A stretch of 64,000 nt of DNA from an uncultured delta proteobacterium (GCA_963716725.1 CAVQUB010000005.1:448001-512000), one strand, 5' to 3'. Shown: positions 33,553-53,555, numbered from the stretch's first letter. Numbers and translations: made by a program. The notes: a model not told the origin generated them from the sequence alone.

Positions 33553-34158
33553 ATGCGTGGATTGGCACTTGGCTTGGTGTTGGTGATGCTCTCGGTGAGC
33601 GCTTGTGGCGACGATGGCGACGACGGCGGCGGCAGCGGCGGCAAGAGCACCGGTGGCACTGGCGGCGGCAGCGCGGGCAGCGGCGGAGCGACTGGCGGCA
33701 CGGGTGGCGGAACCGCAGGCAGCGGCGGAGCGACCGGTGGCACTGGCGGCGGCAGCGCGGGCAGCGGCGGAGCGACCGGCGGTACGGGCGGCGGCAGCGC
33801 GGGCAGCGGCGGCACCAGCGGCGCCGGTGGCAGCACCGACGGCGGCAAGCCCGACGGCGGCAAACCCGACGGCGGCAAACCCGACGGCGGCAAGCCCGAC
33901 GGCGGCAACACCGACGGCGGCAACACCGATGGCGGCAAACCCGATGCCAGCCCGAACACGGATGGCGGCGGAGCGTGCACGGCCGACAAACAATGCAAGC
34001 TCTTCTCGTCGTACTGCAGCACGGCTCCCTGTCAGTGTATCGCTCTCCCATCCGGCCAAGCAGATCCCAAGTGCGGTGGCACGCTGGTGAACTGTCTGAA
34101 AGATCCCTGTCTCGGCAAAGTCGCGACGTGCAACGGCGGCACCTGTCAAGTGAAGTGA
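33553..34158 (+). CDS. Gly-rich repeat lipoprotein with small Cys-rich C-terminal domain
   Basis: VSAC lipobox; (GGTGGGSAGSGGAT)n and (DGGKP/DGGNT)n repeats; C-terminal Cys cluster. Confidence 0.75.
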   Translation: MRGLALGLVLVMLSVSACGDDGDDGGGSGGKSTGGTGGGSAGSGGATGGTGGGTAGSGGATGGTGGGSAGSGGATGGTGGGSAGSGGTSGAGGSTDGGKPDGGKPDGGKPDGGKPDGGNTDGGNTDGGKPDASPNTDGGGACTADKQCKLFSSYCSTAPCQCIALPSGQADPKCGGTLVNCLKDPCLGKVATCNGGTCQVK

Positions 34159-35564: not shown

Positions 35565-38078
35565 TCAGCCAGTGCCGGGCAGGGTGGCGTTCGACAGCCA
35601 CTTGAAGCCGTCGAGCAACACGCTCGAGTCGAAGGCCGTGTCACCCACGTCCCAGACCACGATGCGCAGCTCGACGATCTGTCCCGGAACGACGTTGCCC
35701 GCCGTGGTCAGCCAGAACGATCCGCCACCGACCGTGCATGCGCCGGACTTCTCGAAGCCGGTCCCGAGCAGACCGCCGATGCCCGCGCCGCACGAGGCCG
35801 CGTTCACGCTGCTGTCCCAGCAACCCGGGTTGCTCGCCTGGCTCTCGCACACCGCGAACAGGCTGGTGCCCGCCGCGATGTTGATACCGATGGGCCACTT
35901 CTTGCCCGCCGTGTCCAGGTAGGTCATCAGGTTCTTGTCGATGGGGTTCGGAATCGGCGAGGGCGCGCCGCTTGGCGTGTCCACCAGCGCGACCAGCTGG
36001 TCGTTGAAGTCCGTGCACACGTACTCGGGGTACTCCGCGCTCAGGAAGTACGAGTTGAACGAGAAGGCCCGAGCGTTGGTCGGCGCGCGCAGGCGCAGCC
36101 GCAGCATGACCGAGTCGCGAGCGAGGTTCGGTCCACCCGAGGTCCCCGAGCCGCAGTTCGGCGCCACGGGCAGCGCGTTGGCGGCCTTGAGCGGCGGGTT
36201 TGCGGTGGTGAACCAGTCCTTGATGCAGCGCGCGTCCGTGCAGGTCGAGACGTTGACCGAGCTGCTCGGACCGTGCGTCGTGCTGACGTTGAACCCGCCC
36301 GGCGCGCCGCCGTTCGGACCTGGGTTGGTCTGCGTCGCGTCGGAGGCAATGCCGCTCGAGAAGACCGCCATCGAGCCGCCCTCGATCGGCACGTTGTTCG
36401 TGCCGAACTTCGGTCGGATCGAGCGAGCTCGGACGTCGCCCAGGGCAGAGCCGTCGGCGCGCAAGAGCTCGGCGGTGATCAAGCCCCAGGTCTTGTCCTT
36501 CTTGGCCGCGGGGGTTTCGGTGGTCGTGCGGCAGACCCCAATCGCCTTGGCGTAGTCGCCCGCCGTCGCGGAGTTGGACGCCAGCGTCTGATCGCAGGGC
36601 AGCGCGTCTTCTTGGTCGAAGAGATCGATCTTGGCGTTGCAGTTGTCGTCGATGCCGTTGCCCACGACCTCCACCGCGCCCGGGTTCACGTACTGCGGCT
36701 CACTGCCGCAGGTGCCCGGCTTGTCGCAGCAGTCACCTTCGGAGGCCAGCCAACCGTCGCCGTCGCAATCGGTGGTGGCGCTGTTGCACTGCTGGCAGGT
36801 TCCGGTCACGCACTTCGCGCCGGGCGCGCAGGCGTTGCCGCAGGTTCCGCAGTTGGCCAAATCGATCTGCGTGTTGACGCACGAGTTGCCACACTTGGTG
36901 AGGCTGCCGCCGCATACACTGGCGCAGGTGCCGTTGTTGCAGATCTGGCCCGACGTGCAGGCGGTGCCGCAGGTGCCGCAGTTCGCGCCGTCGGTCTTGG
37001 TGTCGACGCAGGTCGAGCCGCACTTGGTGGTGCCGCCGGAGCACTGCAAGCTGCAGGTGCCCGTCGAGCAGACCTGGCCGCTGGGGCACGCATTGCCGCA
37101 GCCGCCACAGTTCGCGGGATCGGTGTCGGTGACGACGCAGGCTGTGCCGCATTTGATGGCGCCGCCGGAACACTGCAGGCCGCAGGTCCCCGTCGAGCAG
37201 ACCTGCCCGCCGGTGCAGGCGTTTCCGCAAGTGCCGCAGTTGGTCGAGTCGCTGTTGGTGTCGACGCATACGGTGCCACACTTGGTGGTGCCGCCGCTGC
37301 AGGTCAGACCGCAGGTGCCCGTCGAGCAGACCTCGCCCCCGCTGCAGGCGGTGCCGCAGGTGCCGCAATTGGCCGGATCGATCTGAGTGTCGACGCATTT
37401 GTTCCCGCAGAGCGCGGTGCCGCCGAGACACTGGCTCGCGCACTGCCCCGCGGAGCAGACCTCGCCGGTCTTGCAGGTCGTGCCGCAAGCGCCGCAGTTG
37501 GCGGGATCGATCTGGGTGTCGACGCACTTGTTGCTGCACTCAGTGGTTCCGCCCAGGCACTGGCTCGCGCATTTTCCGGCGGAGCAGAGCTCGCCGGTCT
37601 TGCACGCGGTGCCGCAAGCGCCGCAGTTGGCGGGATCGATCTGGGTGTCGACGCACTTGTTGCTGCACTCGGTAGTCCCGCCCAGGCACTGGCTCGAACA
37701 CTGCGCGGCCGAGCAGAGCTCACCGGTCTTGCATGCCATCTCGCAGCCGCCGCAGTTGGACGGGTCGATAGTGGTGTCGACGCACTTGCCGTTGCACAGC
37801 GTGGCGCCAGGACACTGCCCGCCGCCGCCGCCGGTGGCGCCGCTGCCGCCCGTAGCGCCGCTGCCGCCCGTAGCGCCGCTGCCGCCGGTGGCGCCGCTGC
37901 CGCCTGTGGCGCCGCTGCCGCCTGTGGCGCCGCTGCCGCCTGTGGCGCCGCTGCCGCCAATGCCCGCAGATGACCCGCTGTCGCTGCCGCAGCCGGCGAG
38001 CGGGGCGGCCGCGAACGCGGCGAGCGCAGCGACGGTCAGAGCCGCCGAGCGCAGTTTGGATCGATGATTGGTTTTCAT
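35565..38078 (-). CDS. Large surface lipoprotein: GGSGAT linker, eight 43-aa Cys-rich repeats (MXAN_6577/Stig1-like), MopE-like metal-binding motif, choice-of-anchor-L-like domain
   Basis: LAGC lipobox; CVDTxxDPxNCGxCG repeats with 129-bp period; DCDGDG...NPGAVEVVGNGIDDNCN; FLSAEYPEYVCTDFND, WDVGDTAFDSSVLLDGFKW. Confidence 0.8.
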   Translation of the reverse strand: MKTNHRSKLRSAALTVAALAAFAAAPLAGCGSDSGSSAGIGGSGATGGSGATGGSGATGGSGATGGSGATGGSGATGGSGATGGGGGQCPGATLCNGKCVDTTIDPSNCGGCEMACKTGELCSAAQCSSQCLGGTTECSNKCVDTQIDPANCGACGTACKTGELCSAGKCASQCLGGTTECSNKCVDTQIDPANCGACGTTCKTGEVCSAGQCASQCLGGTALCGNKCVDTQIDPANCGTCGTACSGGEVCSTGTCGLTCSGGTTKCGTVCVDTNSDSTNCGTCGNACTGGQVCSTGTCGLQCSGGAIKCGTACVVTDTDPANCGGCGNACPSGQVCSTGTCSLQCSGGTTKCGSTCVDTKTDGANCGTCGTACTSGQICNNGTCASVCGGSLTKCGNSCVNTQIDLANCGTCGNACAPGAKCVTGTCQQCNSATTDCDGDGWLASEGDCCDKPGTCGSEPQYVNPGAVEVVGNGIDDNCNAKIDLFDQEDALPCDQTLASNSATAGDYAKAIGVCRTTTETPAAKKDKTWGLITAELLRADGSALGDVRARSIRPKFGTNNVPIEGGSMAVFSSGIASDATQTNPGPNGGAPGGFNVSTTHGPSSSVNVSTCTDARCIKDWFTTANPPLKAANALPVAPNCGSGTSGGPNLARDSVMLRLRLRAPTNARAFSFNSYFLSAEYPEYVCTDFNDQLVALVDTPSGAPSPIPNPIDKNLMTYLDTAGKKWPIGINIAAGTSLFAVCESQASNPGCWDSSVNAASCGAGIGGLLGTGFEKSGACTVGGGSFWLTTAGNVVPGQIVELRIVVWDVGDTAFDSSVLLDGFKWLSNATLPGTG

Positions 38079-41207: not shown

Positions 41208-42464
41208 ATGAACGGGGTCAAACTCTGGGGAGTTCGAGGCGTTGGACTGATCGCGGCAATGGCCATCGGCCAAGCCTGTTCTGGGGACGGCGCGCCCGCA
41301 GAGCGCGGTTCTGCCGGTCAAGTGTCTTCGCCCGTGCAGGTCGCGAGCGGCGGCGGCTGCACCGTCGAGTGGGTGCGGCTCAACTACGACACGCCCGGTA
41401 CCGACAGCGGTGAGTTCCTCGAGCTTCGGGTCACTAATTCCGGCTCGGCGGCGACTACGCTGGGAGCTTGCGGACTCGCCAGCATTCGATTGGTCAGCGA
41501 TTCGGACTGCGGCACCTATCGGACCATCGCGCTATCAGCCGTCGCCATTCCGAACGACGGCATCATCGTGATCTGCGACTCGACCCAGATCACGGGCGGA
41601 GTGTGTGACGTGGACGTCAGCGCGGGCGCCACCGGCTGGATCCAGAACGGCGCCCCGGACCACCTCAGCTTCGTGGCGGGTGACGACAGCGTCACGCTCC
41701 ACGCCACCTACGAGGGTTCCGCCGCGGGGTGTCTGCCCGACGGCGGCGCGGTCCCAACGCTGCTCCTCCAGACGGAAGACAACGCCGCCCCCGACATGGT
41801 CAACACCTGGTGCGACAACAAGTGGATCCTCCAGGATGTCACGGACTCGGGACCCGGCACGCCGCTCAAGTGTCCGGTCGACGGCGGCGCCGACGCCGGG
41901 GACGAAGGCGGGGACGCCACGGCCGACGCGACCGCCGACGCCACGGCCGACGCGACCGCCGATGCCACGGCTGACGCGACCGCCGATGCCACGGCTGACG
42001 CGACCGCCGATGCCACGGCTGACGCGACCGCCGATGCCACGGCTGACGCGACCGCCGACGCCACGGCTGACGCCACGGCTGACGCCACGGCTGACGCGAC
42101 CGCCGACGCCACGAGCGACGCGACCGCGACGGGTGGGACCGGTGGCACGGCAGGTGCCGGCGGCACGGCTGGAGCCGGTGGTACGGCAGGCGCGGGTGGC
42201 GCATCGGGCGGCAGCGGCGGCGCGAGCAGCGGCGGCGCGAGCAGCGGCGGCGCGAGCTTCGGCGGCGCGAGCAGCGGCGGCGCGAGCTTCGGCGGTACCG
42301 GTGGCAAGTCGGACGCCGGCGTGGGCGGGTCGAAGTTTTCCGGTGGTGGCTCTGACGACGACGGTGGCTGTGGCTGCGCGCTGCCGGGCCGTCAGCCCGC
42401 GTCTCCGGGTGCGTTTGCGCTCCTGGCGCTCGGACTCGCGGCGCTCTCGCGTCGCCGACGCTGA
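41208..42464 (+). CDS. MYXO-CTERM sorted surface protein with lamin-tail-like N-domain and (DATA)n stalk
   Basis: NYDTPGTDSGEFLEL, IQNGAPD; C-terminal DDDGGCGC + hydrophobic stretch + RRRR. Confidence 0.85.
   Translation: MNGVKLWGVRGVGLIAAMAIGQACSGDGAPAERGSAGQVSSPVQVASGGGCTVEWVRLNYDTPGTDSGEFLELRVTNSGSAATTLGACGLASIRLVSDSDCGTYRTIALSAVAIPNDGIIVICDSTQITGGVCDVDVSAGATGWIQNGAPDHLSFVAGDDSVTLHATYEGSAAGCLPDGGAVPTLLLQTEDNAAPDMVNTWCDNKWILQDVTDSGPGTPLKCPVDGGADAGDEGGDATADATADATADATADATADATADATADATADATADATADATADATADATADATADATADATADATSDATATGGTGGTAGAGGTAGAGGTAGAGGASGGSGGASSGGASSGGASFGGASSGGASFGGTGGKSDAGVGGSKFSGGGSDDDGGCGCALPGRQPASPGAFALLALGLAALSRRRR
41913..42128 (+). repeat. Coding 12-bp tandem repeat (Asp-Ala-Thr-Ala), 18 units
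   Basis: GAYGCSACSGCY units in frame, with mostly synonymous variation and one DATS unit. Confidence 0.92.
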
Positions 42465-49110: not shown

Positions 49111-50121
49111 GTGCCCACCGAGTTGTTGAAGAACCCCTTCGTTCACGGCGCCGTCTACGGCGTCTTGATCGTCACCGTGCTGATGACCATCACGGCGTGG
49201 AGCATCTGGTTCGAGCGCAAGTTCGCCGGTCGCATGCAGAGTCGCGTCGGGCCCACGCTGGTCGGCCCCTTTGGTTTGCTGCAGCCCCTCGCCGACGCGG
49301 TGAAGCTCCTCCAGAAAGAGGACATCGTCCCGGCCGCCGCTGACCGCACGCTCTTCAATCTGGCGCCGCCGCTGACGGTTCTCTTCGCGCTGGCCACCGC
49401 GGCCGTGATCCCGTTTGGCCCCGAGGTGATCGCTGCGGATCTCGACATCGGTGTGCTCTGGGTTCTCGCGATGGGCGGGCTCACGGTGTTCCCGGTTTGG
49501 ATCGCGGGCTGGGCCAGCAACAACAAGTACGCGCTGCTGGGCGGGATGCGCGCGGTCGCCCAGGGTATCTCCTACGAGATCCCGCTCGTGCTCGCCGCGC
49601 TCGTGCCGGTCACCCTCGCCGGATCGATGAGCATTTCGGACATTGTGCGCTACCAAGAGCAGCACGGCTGGATCGTGGGCTTCCCGCCGGGCCCGGGCTT
49701 GATCGCTTTTCTGATCTTCTTCATGGCATCGCTGGCGGAGGCCAACCGCATCCCATTCGACATCCCCGAGGCCGAGAGCGAGCTCATCGCAGGTGTGACG
49801 ACCGAGTACACTGGAATGAAGTTCGGGCTGTTCTACTTGGCCGAGTACCTGCACACGTTGATCGTGAGCGCGCTCGGCGCCGCGCTCTTCTTTGGCGGCT
49901 GGGCGGGCCCGATGGGACTCGCGCCCGGGCTCCACTGGATGGTGATCAAGTCGCTGCTGCTGTTCTTCGTGGTTTTTTGGGTGCGCTGGACGTTCCTGCG
50001 CTTCCGTGCCGATCAGCTGATGAGCTTGTGCTGGAAGTACCTGGTCCCGGCGGGCCTCGTGCTGGTCATGCTCGCCGCCTTCTGGGTTCACTACGGCGTC
50101 GGCAAAGCGGGAACGAACTGA
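49111..50121 (+). CDS. nuoH: NADH-quinone oxidoreductase subunit H
   Basis: ERKFAGRMQSRVGP, GLLQPLADAVKL, SNNKYALLG, RIPFDIPEAESEL. Confidence 0.97.
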   Translation: MPTELLKNPFVHGAVYGVLIVTVLMTITAWSIWFERKFAGRMQSRVGPTLVGPFGLLQPLADAVKLLQKEDIVPAAADRTLFNLAPPLTVLFALATAAVIPFGPEVIAADLDIGVLWVLAMGGLTVFPVWIAGWASNNKYALLGGMRAVAQGISYEIPLVLAALVPVTLAGSMSISDIVRYQEQHGWIVGFPPGPGLIAFLIFFMASLAEANRIPFDIPEAESELIAGVTTEYTGMKFGLFYLAEYLHTLIVSALGAALFFGGWAGPMGLAPGLHWMVIKSLLLFFVVFWVRWTFLRFRADQLMSLCWKYLVPAGLVLVMLAAFWVHYGVGKAGTN

Positions 50122-51077
50122 TGGGCTACCTGGGCGACAGCCTGCGCGCCCTGGCGCTCACGCTGAAGAACGCGTTTCGCCAACCGGTGACCGTGCGATT
50201 TCCCGCCGAGAAAAGGCAACGTGCGGCGCGCTTCCGCACCAGCTTCGCGCTGCTCCACGACGCGGAGGGTGACGAGGCCTGCGTGGGTTGCCTGCAATGC
50301 GAGAAGGTCTGCCCTTCGCAGGTCATCACCATCGTGGTCGAGAAGCGCGACTCCCCGGTGACTCAGAAGCGGCGCGGCTACGCCACGGATTTCACCCTCG
50401 ATCTCAACGCTTGCATCTACTGTGAGCTGTGCGTCCAGGTCTGTCCGACCGACGCCATCGTGATGACGCGCGAGGCCGAAGTGCCGGCGTACTCTCGGGA
50501 GGCACTCGTGCTCACGATGGACCGGCTCTACGCCAACGAGAAGAACAAGCCGCTGGCGTGGGGCACCGCGACGAACCTGATGGAGATGCAGAACCCGAAG
50601 CGGGGTCAGGCCGCGGAGGCACCCAAGCCGAAAGCGGAGCCTACGTCGCCCGCCAAGCCCGCGTCGCCTGCCAAGCCCGCGTCGCCTGCCAAGCCCGCGT
50701 CGCCTGCCAAGCCCGCGTCGCCGGCGGAGCCTGCGTCGCCCGCGGGGGCTGCGTCGCCGGCGGAGGCTGCGTCGCCGGCGGAGACTGCGTCGCCCGGGCC
50801 GCCTGCGTCGCCTGCGTCGCCCGCGTCGCCTGCCAAGCCTGCGTCGCCCGGGTCGCCTGCGTCGCCCGGGTCGCCCGCGTCGCCCGCGTCGCCTGCGTCG
50901 CCCGCGGAGCCTGCGTCGCCCGCGGAGCCTGCGTTGCCCGCGGAGCCTGCGTCGCCCGCGGAGCCTGCGTCGCTCGCGGAGCCTGCGTCGCCTGGCAAGC
51001 CTGCGTCGCCCGCGGAGAGCAAGCCGACAGCGGAGAGCAAGCCGACAGGCGAAACCGATCCGCCTCGGGCCGAGTGA
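50121..51077 (+). CDS. nuoI: NADH-quinone oxidoreductase subunit I with long Pro-Ala-Ser repeat tail
   Basis: CVGCLQCEKVCP and CIYCELCVQVCP; ATG overlaps the nuoH stop. Confidence 0.92.
   Translation: MGYLGDSLRALALTLKNAFRQPVTVRFPAEKRQRAARFRTSFALLHDAEGDEACVGCLQCEKVCPSQVITIVVEKRDSPVTQKRRGYATDFTLDLNACIYCELCVQVCPTDAIVMTREAEVPAYSREALVLTMDRLYANEKNKPLAWGTATNLMEMQNPKRGQAAEAPKPKAEPTSPAKPASPAKPASPAKPASPAKPASPAEPASPAGAASPAEAASPAETASPGPPASPASPASPAKPASPGSPASPGSPASPASPASPAEPASPAEPALPAEPASPAEPASLAEPASPGKPASPAESKPTAESKPTGETDPPRAE
50634..51047 (+). repeat. Array A: 18-bp (2x9-bp) tandem repeat inside the nuoI 3' end
   Basis: About 21 units like CCTGCGTCGCCCGCGGAG / CCCGCGTCGCCTGCCAAG, then 2x GCGGAGAGCAAGCCGACA. 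Confidence 0.92.
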
Positions 51078-51096
51078 TGCACTCGGGCGGCGCGTG

Positions 51097-52143
51097 CTAG
51101 TCGAAGCCTGGCGGCGCCACCGGGTGCTCGGGCCAGGCGGACAGGCGAGCCGCGGACGGTCCGGGAGTGGCCGTCGGATCGAGCAGTCCGTAGCGGCGCC
51201 ACCCGATCCGCAACAGCCCGACGCGCGGCGGCTGGATCCCCGTAGGCAGCTCGACGCATGGGTCGCGATCCAAGGCGAGCGCGCGCACCAGCCCCCGCGT
51301 CGATCTCCAGCCGTCGAAGTGTCGTGCTGACGAGAATGGGTCGAGGAAGTCGGTTGGCAGTTGCCTGCCCACCTGCGCTTGATGCCGCCGGAAGTTGGCC
51401 AGCACGTAAAGCAAAGCACTCCGCACCTCGAGCGGTGTCCGAAGCGGACGAGCGTAGTACCGACCCGTGAATACAGGGCCACGCGTTCCCATGAGCGCGT
51501 TTAGGCCGCGCGCAATCCGAACACAGAGGCCTTTCATTGCCCGCGAGAGGGCGACTCGATCCGGAGCTTCGGCGATCAGGTGCAAGTGGTTGCCCTGCAC
51601 GGAGTAGTGCACCAAGCGAAACCCGAACCGTTCGCAGCTCCCCGCAAACGCACGGCGCAGCGCCTTCAGACCACGTTTGCTGCGCAAGTTCCAGACGCGG
51701 TCGAGCACGCGAAGCGTTACATGGACCGGGTGCGCCGATCGATGCGCCGGGCGCTCTCGGTGAGGCACGGGGCGACGTGCCCCCGGCTTGCGACCGGCGC
51801 CCGCGCGGCGCCCGCCGTGACCGTGACCAGGATCGCCCGTGCGATCGGCCTGCGCGCGGCGCCTGTCGTGTCCGGAGTCGCCTGCGCGCCCGGAGTCGCG
51901 TGCGCGCCCAGAATCGCCTGCGCGCCTGGAATCGCCTGCGCGCCTGGAATCGCCTGCGCGCCCGGAATCGCCTGCGCGCCTGGAATCGCCTGCGCGCCCG
52001 AAGTCGCCTGCGCGCCTGGAATCGCCTGCGCGCGCGCTCGGGGGCGGCCCCGAGTCGCCGGATCGCCTGCGCGAAGGGCGGACTGGAGCCGAGCGAGCGG
52101 CATTCAGACGGGCCGACGGCCGAGTTGGAGACGGATTCACCAC
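51097..52143 (-). mobile_element. RAYT-like (REP-associated) HUH Y1 tyrosine transposase; start uncertain
   Basis: GGRRAGAGRKP, PVHVTLRV, YSVQGNHLHLIAEA (HUH at 51580-51588), VFTGRYYARPL, LLYVLAN (Tyr at 51406-51408), DPFSSA..FDGW. GTG candidates at 52140 and 52143; the frame stays open to 52527. Confidence 0.85.
51874..52035 (+). repeat. Array B: 9 x 18-bp tandem repeat GGA(A/G)TCGCCTGCGCGCC(C/T)
   Basis: Nine contiguous units counted from 51874. Confidence 0.95.
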
Positions 52144-52207
52144 TTGATTAGGGCGGACATTAGCGCCGCCGGCGCCATCTCGCAAGCCCAGAGTGACCGG
52201 CCCAGCG

Positions 52208-52540
52208 TGAGTCGGGTGCGAGCCCTGAGCCGAGTGCGAGCCCTGAGCCGAGTGCGAGCCCTGAGCCGGGTGCGAGCCGTGGGTCGGGTGCGAGCCGTGA
52301 GCCGGGTGCGAGCCGTGAGCCGAGTGCGAGCCCTGAGCCGAGTGCGAGCCCTGAGCCGAGTGCGAGCCCTGAGCCGAGTGCGAGCCCTGAGCCGAGTGCG
52401 AGCCCTGAGCCGAGTGCGAGCCCTGAGCCGAGTGCGAGCCCTGAGCCGAGTGCGAGCCCTGAGCCGAGTGCAAGCCGTGAGCCGCGTGCGAGCCCTGAGC
52501 CGCGTGCGAGCCCTGAGCCGCGTGCAAGCCGTGAGCCGCG
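52208..52540 (+). repeat. Array C: 18.5 x 18-bp tandem repeat TGAGCCGAGTGCGAGCCC
   Basis: Units start at 52208+18k up to 52514, plus a partial unit; the central copies are identical. Confidence 0.96.
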
Positions 52541-52558: not shown

Positions 52559-53555
52559 TCAGCGCCGTGCGAGCACCCGCGAGATACTCGGGACGACGTC
52601 TGCCCGGCCGGCCATCAACATGTTGAGCTCGACCGATCCGCAGAATCCGCAACCGGCGCAATCGAATCCAGGCAGCTCGCTCAGGGCGCGAGCCACGCCG
52701 TGGGTCCGGACGTTCGGTGCCGGCGCGTCGTATCGGATGCGATCGCAGGGCACAACGTCGCCGTTGGCTTCGATCATCGCGAATACCCGCCCCGCCCAGC
52801 AGTCGAGTCCGCGAATCGCTGGCCAACTCGCGATGTGTCGGAGCCCCCCCAGGCTGTTGCGCAGGCGGCGCGGGTCGCGGAGCTTGGTCCGAACGAGCAG
52901 CGCGATGGCGCGGCGATAGTCGCTGGCGTCCGGAAAGAGGTCCTCGCAAACCCGGTCGGCCGAGTGCTCGGTGGCCATCACGGGCTGGAAGGCCACGAAC
53001 GTGTCGTGCTTCCGGGCGAGTTCGATCGCGAACGGGATTTCGGAGAGGTTCTCGCGGGTCATGGTGAAGGCGAACGAGAACTTCACGCCCAGCTCCTTCA
53101 AGACGGCGATGCCGCTCGTGAGCTCGGCGAACGCACCCGGTCGGTCGCGGATGTGGTCGTGCACCGGCGGGCTGCCATCCAGCGAGAGCTTCACCAGTTC
53201 GAGCGGGCGAAGCGCAGCTCGTCGTTCCGAGAACAAGTAGCCCGTGGAGTTGAGCTCGGTGGCGATGCCTTGGTCGACCGCGGCGCGGACTATCTCTGCG
53301 AGATTCTCGGCGCAACGTTGGCTCTCCGCCGGAGAGCGAGAGGCGCCGGGCCCCGAGCCGCGACAGATCCGCGATCACGGTGCGCCATTCTTCGGTCGAG
53401 AGTTCCTCGGTTGGGGTCGACCAAAAGGAGCAAAACCGGCAGCGCGAATGGCAGCGATTGTTCAAGTTGATGCGGACGGCAACGGGAATGCGGCGCCCCA
53501 GGGCACGAACCTTCGCCATGTCGACCAGGGCAGCGACCTTGTCCGAGGCCCTCAT
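52559..53555 (-). CDS. Radical SAM protein with Twitch/SPASM-like C-terminus (apparent frameshift near 53307)
   Basis: CHSRCRFC and SGGEPTLR in one frame; continues NLAEIV...ELNSTG...LSLDG...CWAG...NGDVVPC...CAGCGFC in the next. Confidence 0.85.

Follow-up and report, generated by a model that had tools for sequence, protein, structure and literature searches.

The closest described systems are the REPtrons of Escherichia coli and Pseudomonas, in which an enzyme named TnpA-REP or RAYT (REP-associated tyrosine transposase) occurs with repetitive extragenic palindromes (REPs), their paired form REPIN or bacterial interspersed mosaic elements (BIMEs; PMC3333891, PMC3116915, PMC5581495). A rolling-circle-like route of nicking, extension and rejoining by the RAYT was published as a model for BIME arrays, and strand transfer was shown in vitro (PMC3333891). 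RAYT-like enzymes without REPs are the terminal inverted repeat-associated tyrosine transposases (TIRYTs) of the TIRtrons and TnpA-Y1 subclass 2.1 (PMC3733652, PMC6006769). A further group is TnpA of the IS200/IS605 insertion sequences, such as IS608 and ISDra2. For IS608, TCAA is the right-end cleavage site (PMC3201880) and GAAT the guide (PMC3597680). The locus reported here lies in a stretch of 64,000 nucleotides, the window, from an uncultured delta proteobacterium (GCA_963716725.1 CAVQUB010000005.1:448001-512000). It comprises a gene for a Y1/HUH tyrosine transposase and three tandem arrays, A, B and C, with units of 18 bp.

The gene is an intact member of a large Y1/HUH family centred on myxobacteria. 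Beside or inside the 5' end of such genes, tandem arrays pile up after insertion in several lineages, each locus having its own unit; this was found as an association. The conserved cis-element of the family is a non-palindromic motif and not the arrays. The preferred reading, with a probability of about one half, is that the RAYT-like HUH enzyme nicks DNA in cis near this motif and seeds local duplications, which are later varied by host slippage. The association with arrays was observed directly, and the catalytic step would be its presumed cause. The features of the locus are as follows, with coordinates counted from the first letter of the window and arrays delimited by Tandem Repeats Finder (TRF).

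50121..51077, plus strand: nuoI, host gene for NADH-quinone oxidoreductase chain I, whose C-terminus is a long tail rich in Pro and Ala; convergent with the transposase gene
50634..51017, plus strand: array A, 21.3 copies of 18 bp, in frame in nuoI (PASPAK/PASPAE), a host coding repeat
51097..52143, minus strand: Y1/HUH tyrosine transposase gene, about 348 aa from the probable GTG start at 52143
51406..51408, minus strand: putative catalytic Tyr of the transposase (YVLANF), the invariant Y148, aligning with the Tyr region of TnpA-REP
51580..51588, minus strand: HUH motif (His-Leu-His) of the transposase, read from the sequence and invariant in the alignment
51860..52033, minus strand: array B, 9.6 copies of 18 bp, in frame (RAGDSR/G) in the N-terminal extension of the transposase
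52143..52160, minus strand: family cis-motif ATGTCCGCCCTAATCAAG, consensus ATNTCYGC-N2-3-AWTCAAG, non-palindromic, abutting the start codon
52157..52185, minus strand: possible promoter TTGCGA-17-TAATGT, found by eye, its position conserved in the congener G003
52208..52538, minus strand: array C, 18.4 copies of 18 bp, non-coding, ending about 45 nt 5' of the motif
52559..53236, minus strand: radical SAM/SPASM host gene, upstream, boundary of the insertion

The enzyme, its relatives and the family motif

The minus-strand open reading frame (ORF) matched the Pfam family Y1_Tnp with 29.3 bits (cut-off 23). It stayed below the cut-offs of the NCBIfam models for RAYTs (NF047646, 33.2 against 80 bits) and IS200 (NF033573, 18.2 against 55 bits). 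Y1_Tnp was the sole Pfam match at E-values up to 0.1, and no C-terminal helix-turn-helix (HTH) domain was detected. H88, H90 and Y148 (numbering of the 250-aa query) were invariant in 35 aligned homologues, which were hand-picked among 120 matches listed of 2968. The intact-looking HUH/Y1 enzyme of the preliminary description, which was made from the sequence alone, is borne out by the Pfam match and these invariant residues. The consensus of the Tyr region was YVLxNxRRH, carrying neither the Y---NP signature of class 2 nor the Y---Q signature of IS200/IS605. The predicted structure, with a predicted local distance difference test score of 87, was matched best in Foldseek by E. coli TnpA-REP (4er8), followed by TnpA of IS200/IS608/ISDra2 (2f4f, 2vjv and 2xm3). 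A second GTG at 52140 was changed in a related strain (run X5), which favours 52143 as the start. Named homologues were mostly labelled Myxococcota, Polyangiaceae, Anaeromyxobacter or Deltaproteobacteria. The gene was present once in this genome, syntenic with G003, and relatives held up to 19 matches. Paralogues were mostly 66-90% identical, with one pair at 98%. The ratio of nonsynonymous to synonymous substitution rates (dN/dS) against the G003 orthologue was 0.07, at a dS near saturation.

The locus resembles the REPtrons in the HUH fold with a single Tyr and in a gene that in this genome is single copy, vertically kept and domesticated in appearance, with locus-specific tandem arrays of variable copy number. 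Unlike REPtrons, it has neither hairpins with a GT[AG]G foot nor flanking 16-mers of high copy number. The units of its arrays vary from locus to locus and do not reproduce a recognition element, and the conserved element, which is non-palindromic, overlaps with the 5' end of the gene itself. The enzyme also differs from RAYT groups 2 and 3 (subclasses 2.2, 2.4, 2.5, 2.7 and 2.8) in scoring below the NF047646 cut-off and in lacking the class-2 Y---NP. The two non-coding flanks contained no GTAG/CTAC and one GTGG/CCAC. None of 15 tested units and flank stretches folded better than shuffled sequences, with no z-score below -0.7. The absence of REP palindromes seen initially was thereby confirmed, and Rfam gave a single match at chance level and nothing of note. 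The units were also counted genome-wide, as had been proposed. Any 16-mer of B, C or the flanks occurred at no more than one other site of the genome, which is 84% complete, so that dispersed REP-like copies were not found.

With the TIRYTs and subclass 2.1, the family shares a RAYT-like enzyme without REPs, an NH.H motif and a conserved SS motif after the core. Inward-facing repeats in some relatives and a dispersed repeat family in two genomes are likewise reminiscent of TIRtrons. In contrast to subclass 2.1, the Tyr motif YVLxN lacks the class-2 NP, an HTH tail was not found by Pfam, and neither a terminal inverted repeat nor GGGGWSAS was seen at this locus. The available parts of PMC3733652 and PMC6006769 make no mention of flanking minisatellites, and a term search of two text supplements of PMC6006769 returned no myxobacterial names. 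The model of the enzyme has the same fold as TnpA of IS200/IS605. The family motif ends in TCAA like the right cleavage site of IS608, and G(G/A)AT is frequent some 15 nt upstream of it, resembling the guide GAAT; both are leads only. Unlike IS200/IS605, the locus has no subterminal hairpins, no Y---Q and no tnpB beside the gene, the protein is longer, and near-identical copies are absent, with one copy in this genome. The element is not an IS200. It was classified as a variant of the REPtron/TIRtron kind that partly resembles the REP-less subclass 2.1/TIRYT. The family, its motif and its minisatellites were undescribed in a literature search with thin coverage of subscription journals.

The genome contains a second Y1 gene, L465 (C5:165574-165909), with DHAHV and YVRRQREHH and a score above the NCBIfam IS200 cut-off. 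It is flanked on both sides by two short palindromes in a REPtron-like layout, without a comparable tandem array.

In flank alignments, paralogues were similar from roughly the promoter as far as the stop codon and had no hairpins in common, and the motif ATNTCYGC-N2-3-AWTCAAG was located just before the start codon. Its core was present near the start on the sense strand in 42/114, 45/68 and 40/49 loci of three sets, versus 3 antisense occurrences in each. Near genes, 177 copies were counted in 342 kb, compared with 16 in 440 kb of distant sequence; the density of the motif within 1 kb of the gene was about 14 times that beyond 1.5 kb. When a matrix derived from other loci was applied to the genome, 52143-52160 scored highest of 363 sites (29.3; next 22.0). 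The motif does not fold, with z below -2 in 4% of 120 motif contexts. It may in part be a promoter; a sigma-70 consensus scan gave no site, including at the candidate promoter 52157..52185. Extra copies on both sides and in both orientations occurred in 51/202 loci, and such downstream and inverted copies argue for a second role beyond that of a promoter. This locus has no downstream copy. Counts of a shortened motif in 61 genomes separated carriers poorly from non-carriers because this form also occurs in coding DNA. Tandem runs were found in 14/192 windows beside distal motif copies; among 1647 motif-free windows near the genes, the share was 1.4%. A second repeat, which is intergenic and non-folding, about 70 bp long and ends GCGGCTGCCAGGACC, flanks the Y1 genes of G095 and G153 and faces inward where both copies are present. 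It is dispersed genome-wide, with 90 (G095) and 29 (G153) matches versus 8 and 1 in the control.

Tandem arrays beside family genes

A strong array was defined by a TRF score of at least 100 and at least 2.5 copies. For a strict census, 43 of 244 rows with less than 500 bp upstream were dropped, leaving 201 scorable loci. A strong upstream array was present in 34 of them (3/64, 3/34, 7/58 and 19/43, plus this locus and G003). Ordinary genes had such an array in 3-4% of cases and the called genes of this genome in 4.2%. The density of non-coding arrays was 0.48 per kb within 700 bp upstream versus 0.17 in the far flanks in a first set of 123 loci, and 0.71 versus 0.20 in a second set of 79 metagenome loci, from which the duplicate L171 had been dropped. 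The third set, 53 loci of the window's own family of which two duplicate earlier loci, showed 1.51 arrays per non-coding kb upstream and 0.70 downstream versus 0.14 far from the gene. An upstream array was present in 28 of these 53 loci. The expectation that homologues are enriched in flanking arrays therefore held for part of the family (34/201; 15/15 copies in six genomes); the 167 other scorable loci had no strong upstream array.

By genome, the distribution was nearly all-or-none. All scored copies were positive in G095 (5), G231 (3) and G153, G286, G228, G062 and G058 (2 each), and a mixed state was seen in G124, G273 and G036. In six array-positive genomes, 15/15 copies had an array, compared with 27/928 called genes and 13/282 intergenic gaps of at least 200 bp in regions spaced evenly over the same genomes, 1.2 Mb in total. 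The six genomes were picked after the arrays had been seen; with one copy of each dropped, the count was 9/9. In a blind Pfam search of five of these genomes, arrays occurred at 19/19 Y1 rows (18 distinct), which include one IS200-type fragment and one row with the array about 1 kb downstream. The corresponding values were 1/19 for IS110 and 1/30 for IS66, where 30 of 38 IS66 matches came with loci, many of them identical copies. Array density in the far flanks was equal in array-positive and array-negative genomes (11.3 versus 9.9 per 100 kb). Contig breaks upstream of the gene, taken as a possible sign of lost arrays, showed no bias (24 versus 21 of 159). Arrays were scored more often at loci with full flanks (28/121 versus 6/80). 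Inverted or direct flank similarity was not enriched over the control, with inverted matches in 25/152 near versus 18/100 control flanks overall, and terminal inverted repeats were clear in some relatives.

Each locus had its own unit. Periods ranged from 6 to 134; 30/75 fell at 15-24, 11 were exactly 18 and 38 were not multiples of three. As with B, an array lay between motif and conserved core in 13/151 motif-bearing loci, this locus included. Units of different loci had no shared strand skew. In the tree, arrays were spread over several clades, with host and clade confounded. The occurrence of many relatives among tandem repeats, each with a different unit, suggests that the gene itself drives local repeat formation.

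A coincidence of three unrelated VNTRs (variable number tandem repeats) in a repeat-rich genome is improbable as the general explanation. In its favour, the genome holds 1084 tandem arrays, 18 bp is the commonest period (217/1084), the similarity of the units is at background, and 4.2% of called genes have a strong upstream array. Against this stand the independent array at the place of C in G003, the enrichment in all three locus sets and the fact that, among 129 strong arrays, this locus is the sole case in the genome of three within 2.5 kb. Coincidence is refuted at family level by the within-genome and IS110/IS66 controls and holds for array A only.

Rather unlikely, and still well ahead of coincidence, is a passive hot spot. 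Here the insertion would create neutral, GC-rich and transcribed space, namely the flanks and a dispensable N-terminus, where ordinary slippage arrays arise and are tolerated without any involvement of catalysis. The abundance of arrays in this genome (1084) agrees with it, as do units that are unrelated between loci and without common strand skew, the lack of a fixed breakpoint and the VNTR-like variant end units of C. Comparable space elsewhere fared differently, with arrays in 13/282 other gaps and at 2/49 IS110/IS66 loci versus 15/15 Y1 copies. The genome's second Y1 gene, which is flanked by true palindromes, also lacks such an array.

Other repeats were also recorded. Tandem arrays of 85 bp and 134 bp lie downstream of the transposase at L311 and L313 (G231); their units start at TCAA in the T-loop of a neighbouring tRNA gene and reiterate the 3' end of that gene. 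Because such reiteration is a known signature of integrases, these arrays were left out as evidence on the cut site. The most abundant non-simple repeat of this genome is about 650 bp long and occurs at 33 sites such as C1:35689, 89-99% identical, many copies having a variable insert after the first 130 bp. A repeat element at 12 sites (C2:193798, C4:157630, C5:605043, C21:51033, C33:25636 and 7 more) contains an internal 27-bp VNTR of 1-9 units, and the three copies inspected had near-identical flanks. Dispersed units of about 51 bp in 1-4 tandem copies were located at C9:68687, C9:232548, C14:21724, C26:12962, C26:22262 and 3 more sites. Further coding-type tandem arrays of the window lie at 33631-33944, 36828-37958 and 41913-42295 (42, 15, 129, 18 and 24 bp), including a Cys-rich 43-residue repeat.

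History of arrays A, B and C

The three 18-bp arrays had been estimated at about 21, 9 and 18.5 units, in good agreement with the TRF values. Pieces of the arrays were present in contigs from four runs of four studies (4/22 listed runs), so that they are not an assembly artefact; one of these runs may be the source of the window itself.

Array A is an independent host coding repeat outside the element. An 18-bp array in the nuoI tail was present in all five congeners examined. G003, which carries the transposase, had 18.6 copies; in G005, G002, G001 and G004, where no transposase was found, the counts were 5.1, 6.4, at least 7.9 and 17.1, respectively. Being in frame in nuoI and present in congeners without the transposase, A is not part of the system to which the preliminary description had assigned it. 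The two longest tails belong to the two transposase carriers, in a sample too small to use. In three congeners (L111/L114/L125/L130; G003, G004 and G006), nuoI was out of frame in or before the repeat tail, reflecting either assembly errors or real slippage of the tail.

The situation was different for B and C, which belong with the transposase gene by association. G003 carries a 76%-identical orthologue between the same two host genes, and the neighbouring genes are 75-77% identical. This equal identity, together with the dN/dS, fits one old insertion between the radical SAM gene and nuoI, followed by vertical inheritance under purifying selection. Array B is missing from the G003 orthologue, and at the position of C there is a different array of 9.7 copies of 19 bp. 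At the empty sites, the stop codons of the two host genes are separated by 12 nt in G005 and by 22 nt in G001, without an array. A contig of the related strain (X5) skips 36 bp of B (two units) and 306 bp of C (17 units), leaving about 1.5 units of C, which is probably shorter than assembly collapse would leave. Sequencing depth was raised within C in runs X1 and X9, and C carries variant units at its ends, as VNTRs do. Empty sites without an array, the absence of B from G003 and the lower copy numbers in X5, which may be an ancestral or a deleted state, identify B and C as VNTRs younger than the insertion. The upstream radical SAM/SPASM gene looks frameshifted or truncated at its 5' end compared with G002 and G003, its ORF beginning mid-domain at 53236 (region 53236-53300).

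This chronology bears on a preference of the element for target sites beside existing minisatellites, where stalled forks would leave DNA single-stranded. Single-stranded transposition at the replication fork is described for IS200/IS605 elements (PMC5027513), and array A already adjoins the insertion site in all five congeners examined. Empty sites without an array at the position of C, 13 arrays, B among them, that lie within the element between its motif and core, and the different arrays of this genome and G003 at one inherited site speak against it. The idea is already weak for B and C and was considered quite improbable overall.

The preliminary description had treated A, B and C as one related, co-oriented system, and this set was rejected. 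Unit identities were 11/18 for A-B, 12/18 for B-C and 10/18 for A-C, inside the spread against 113 other 18-bp units of the genome, with shuffle p-values of 0.09, 0.09 and 0.76, respectively. The core TGCG(TC/C/A)GCC(C/T) did occur as described, with 10, 8 and 13 occurrences on the plus strand of A, B and C and none on the minus strand. Random triples of the genome's 18-bp units shared some pattern of 4+gap+3 in 32% (free strand) or 9% (fixed strand) of cases. The shared core and the 18-bp period thus fall within the background. That the three arrays form one family of direct-repeat substrates, replacing REPs and recognised via the TGCG..GCC core, is very improbable. The co-oriented core in all three arrays is in its favour, and so is the 58-nt tip of the G003 element, which matches exactly 12 nt of B, 9 of C and 10 of A. 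The joint chance of the B and C matches was 0.0002 in random windows, in a test chosen after the match had been seen. The core was found in just 1/77 arrays near family genes, 16-mers of B and C recur at most once elsewhere in the genome, and A is a codon-driven host repeat. Units that differ at every locus likewise contradict the proposal that the arrays are a conserved substrate. The arrays look like products and not like the iterated nick sites suggested initially, and the conserved candidate substrate is the separate non-palindromic motif.

Proposed seeding of local duplications and its meaning

In the preferred reading of enzymatic seeding, the enzyme would act mainly in cis and bind the motif on single-stranded DNA near its own gene. 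It would then nick nearby DNA. Extension and rejoining of the 3'-OH, or out-of-register repair, could duplicate 10-60 local bases, a route like that of the published BIME model but without a hairpin unit. The copy number of these first duplications would subsequently be changed by host slippage and recombination. The rolling-circle-like amplification invoked initially is retained here as a possible route, and as a model for RAYTs it had already been published for BIMEs (PMC3333891). A more far-reaching version is tentative and somewhat doubtful. In it, one branch of RAYT-like HUH enzymes would serve to duplicate DNA in cis, guided by recognition of a short, non-palindromic motif at the promoter of the enzyme gene, and would nick and rejoin nearby DNA with little sequence preference. 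Minisatellites would then be made from adjacent DNA, including the enzyme's own N-terminus and perhaps the tail of the neighbouring gene.

Several observations weigh against enzymatic seeding. Most scorable loci (167/201) had no strong upstream array, and no copy was positive in G026 (10), G037 (8), G192 (6), G229 and G046 (4 each), G156, G132 and G030 (3 each) and G049 (2). Copies within a genome are mostly close kin, clade and host effects are inseparable, and p-values overstate independence. The IS200-type fragment in G231 also has an array. In this genome, 7 of the 33 copies of another repeat lie within 1.5 kb of a strong array, and an element with 12 copies contains a VNTR of its own. The gene caller used was crude and missed nuoI. 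The motif lay inside only 3/72 near-gene arrays, no fixed distance between array and motif was found, and the comparison of motif-copy pairs yielded no single breakpoint or cut position. The 5' versus 3' bias of tandem runs around distal motifs was not significant (p = 0.095). Copies of the 70-bp repeat away from the gene were weakly linked to arrays (7/55 on the 5' side and 3/55 on the 3' side, versus 20/560 random windows), which points to an effect mostly in cis.

No REPs were found for subclasses 2.1 and 2.3 (PMC6006769), and RAYTs were concluded to have an unrecognised function (PMC5581495). The present family offers a candidate substrate, the 18-nt motif, together with a visible candidate product, the locus-specific arrays. 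With this combination, direct tests become possible both of the substrate question and of the BIME amplification model. Replication slippage is the usual explanation for minisatellites in bacteria. If enzymatic seeding is true, VNTRs would have a new origin in an enzyme that seeds minisatellites, and local duplication might be achieved with it as a tool. In the more far-reaching version, the enzymes would be specialised producers of VNTRs in bacteria and the counterpart, without hairpins, of BIME amplification.

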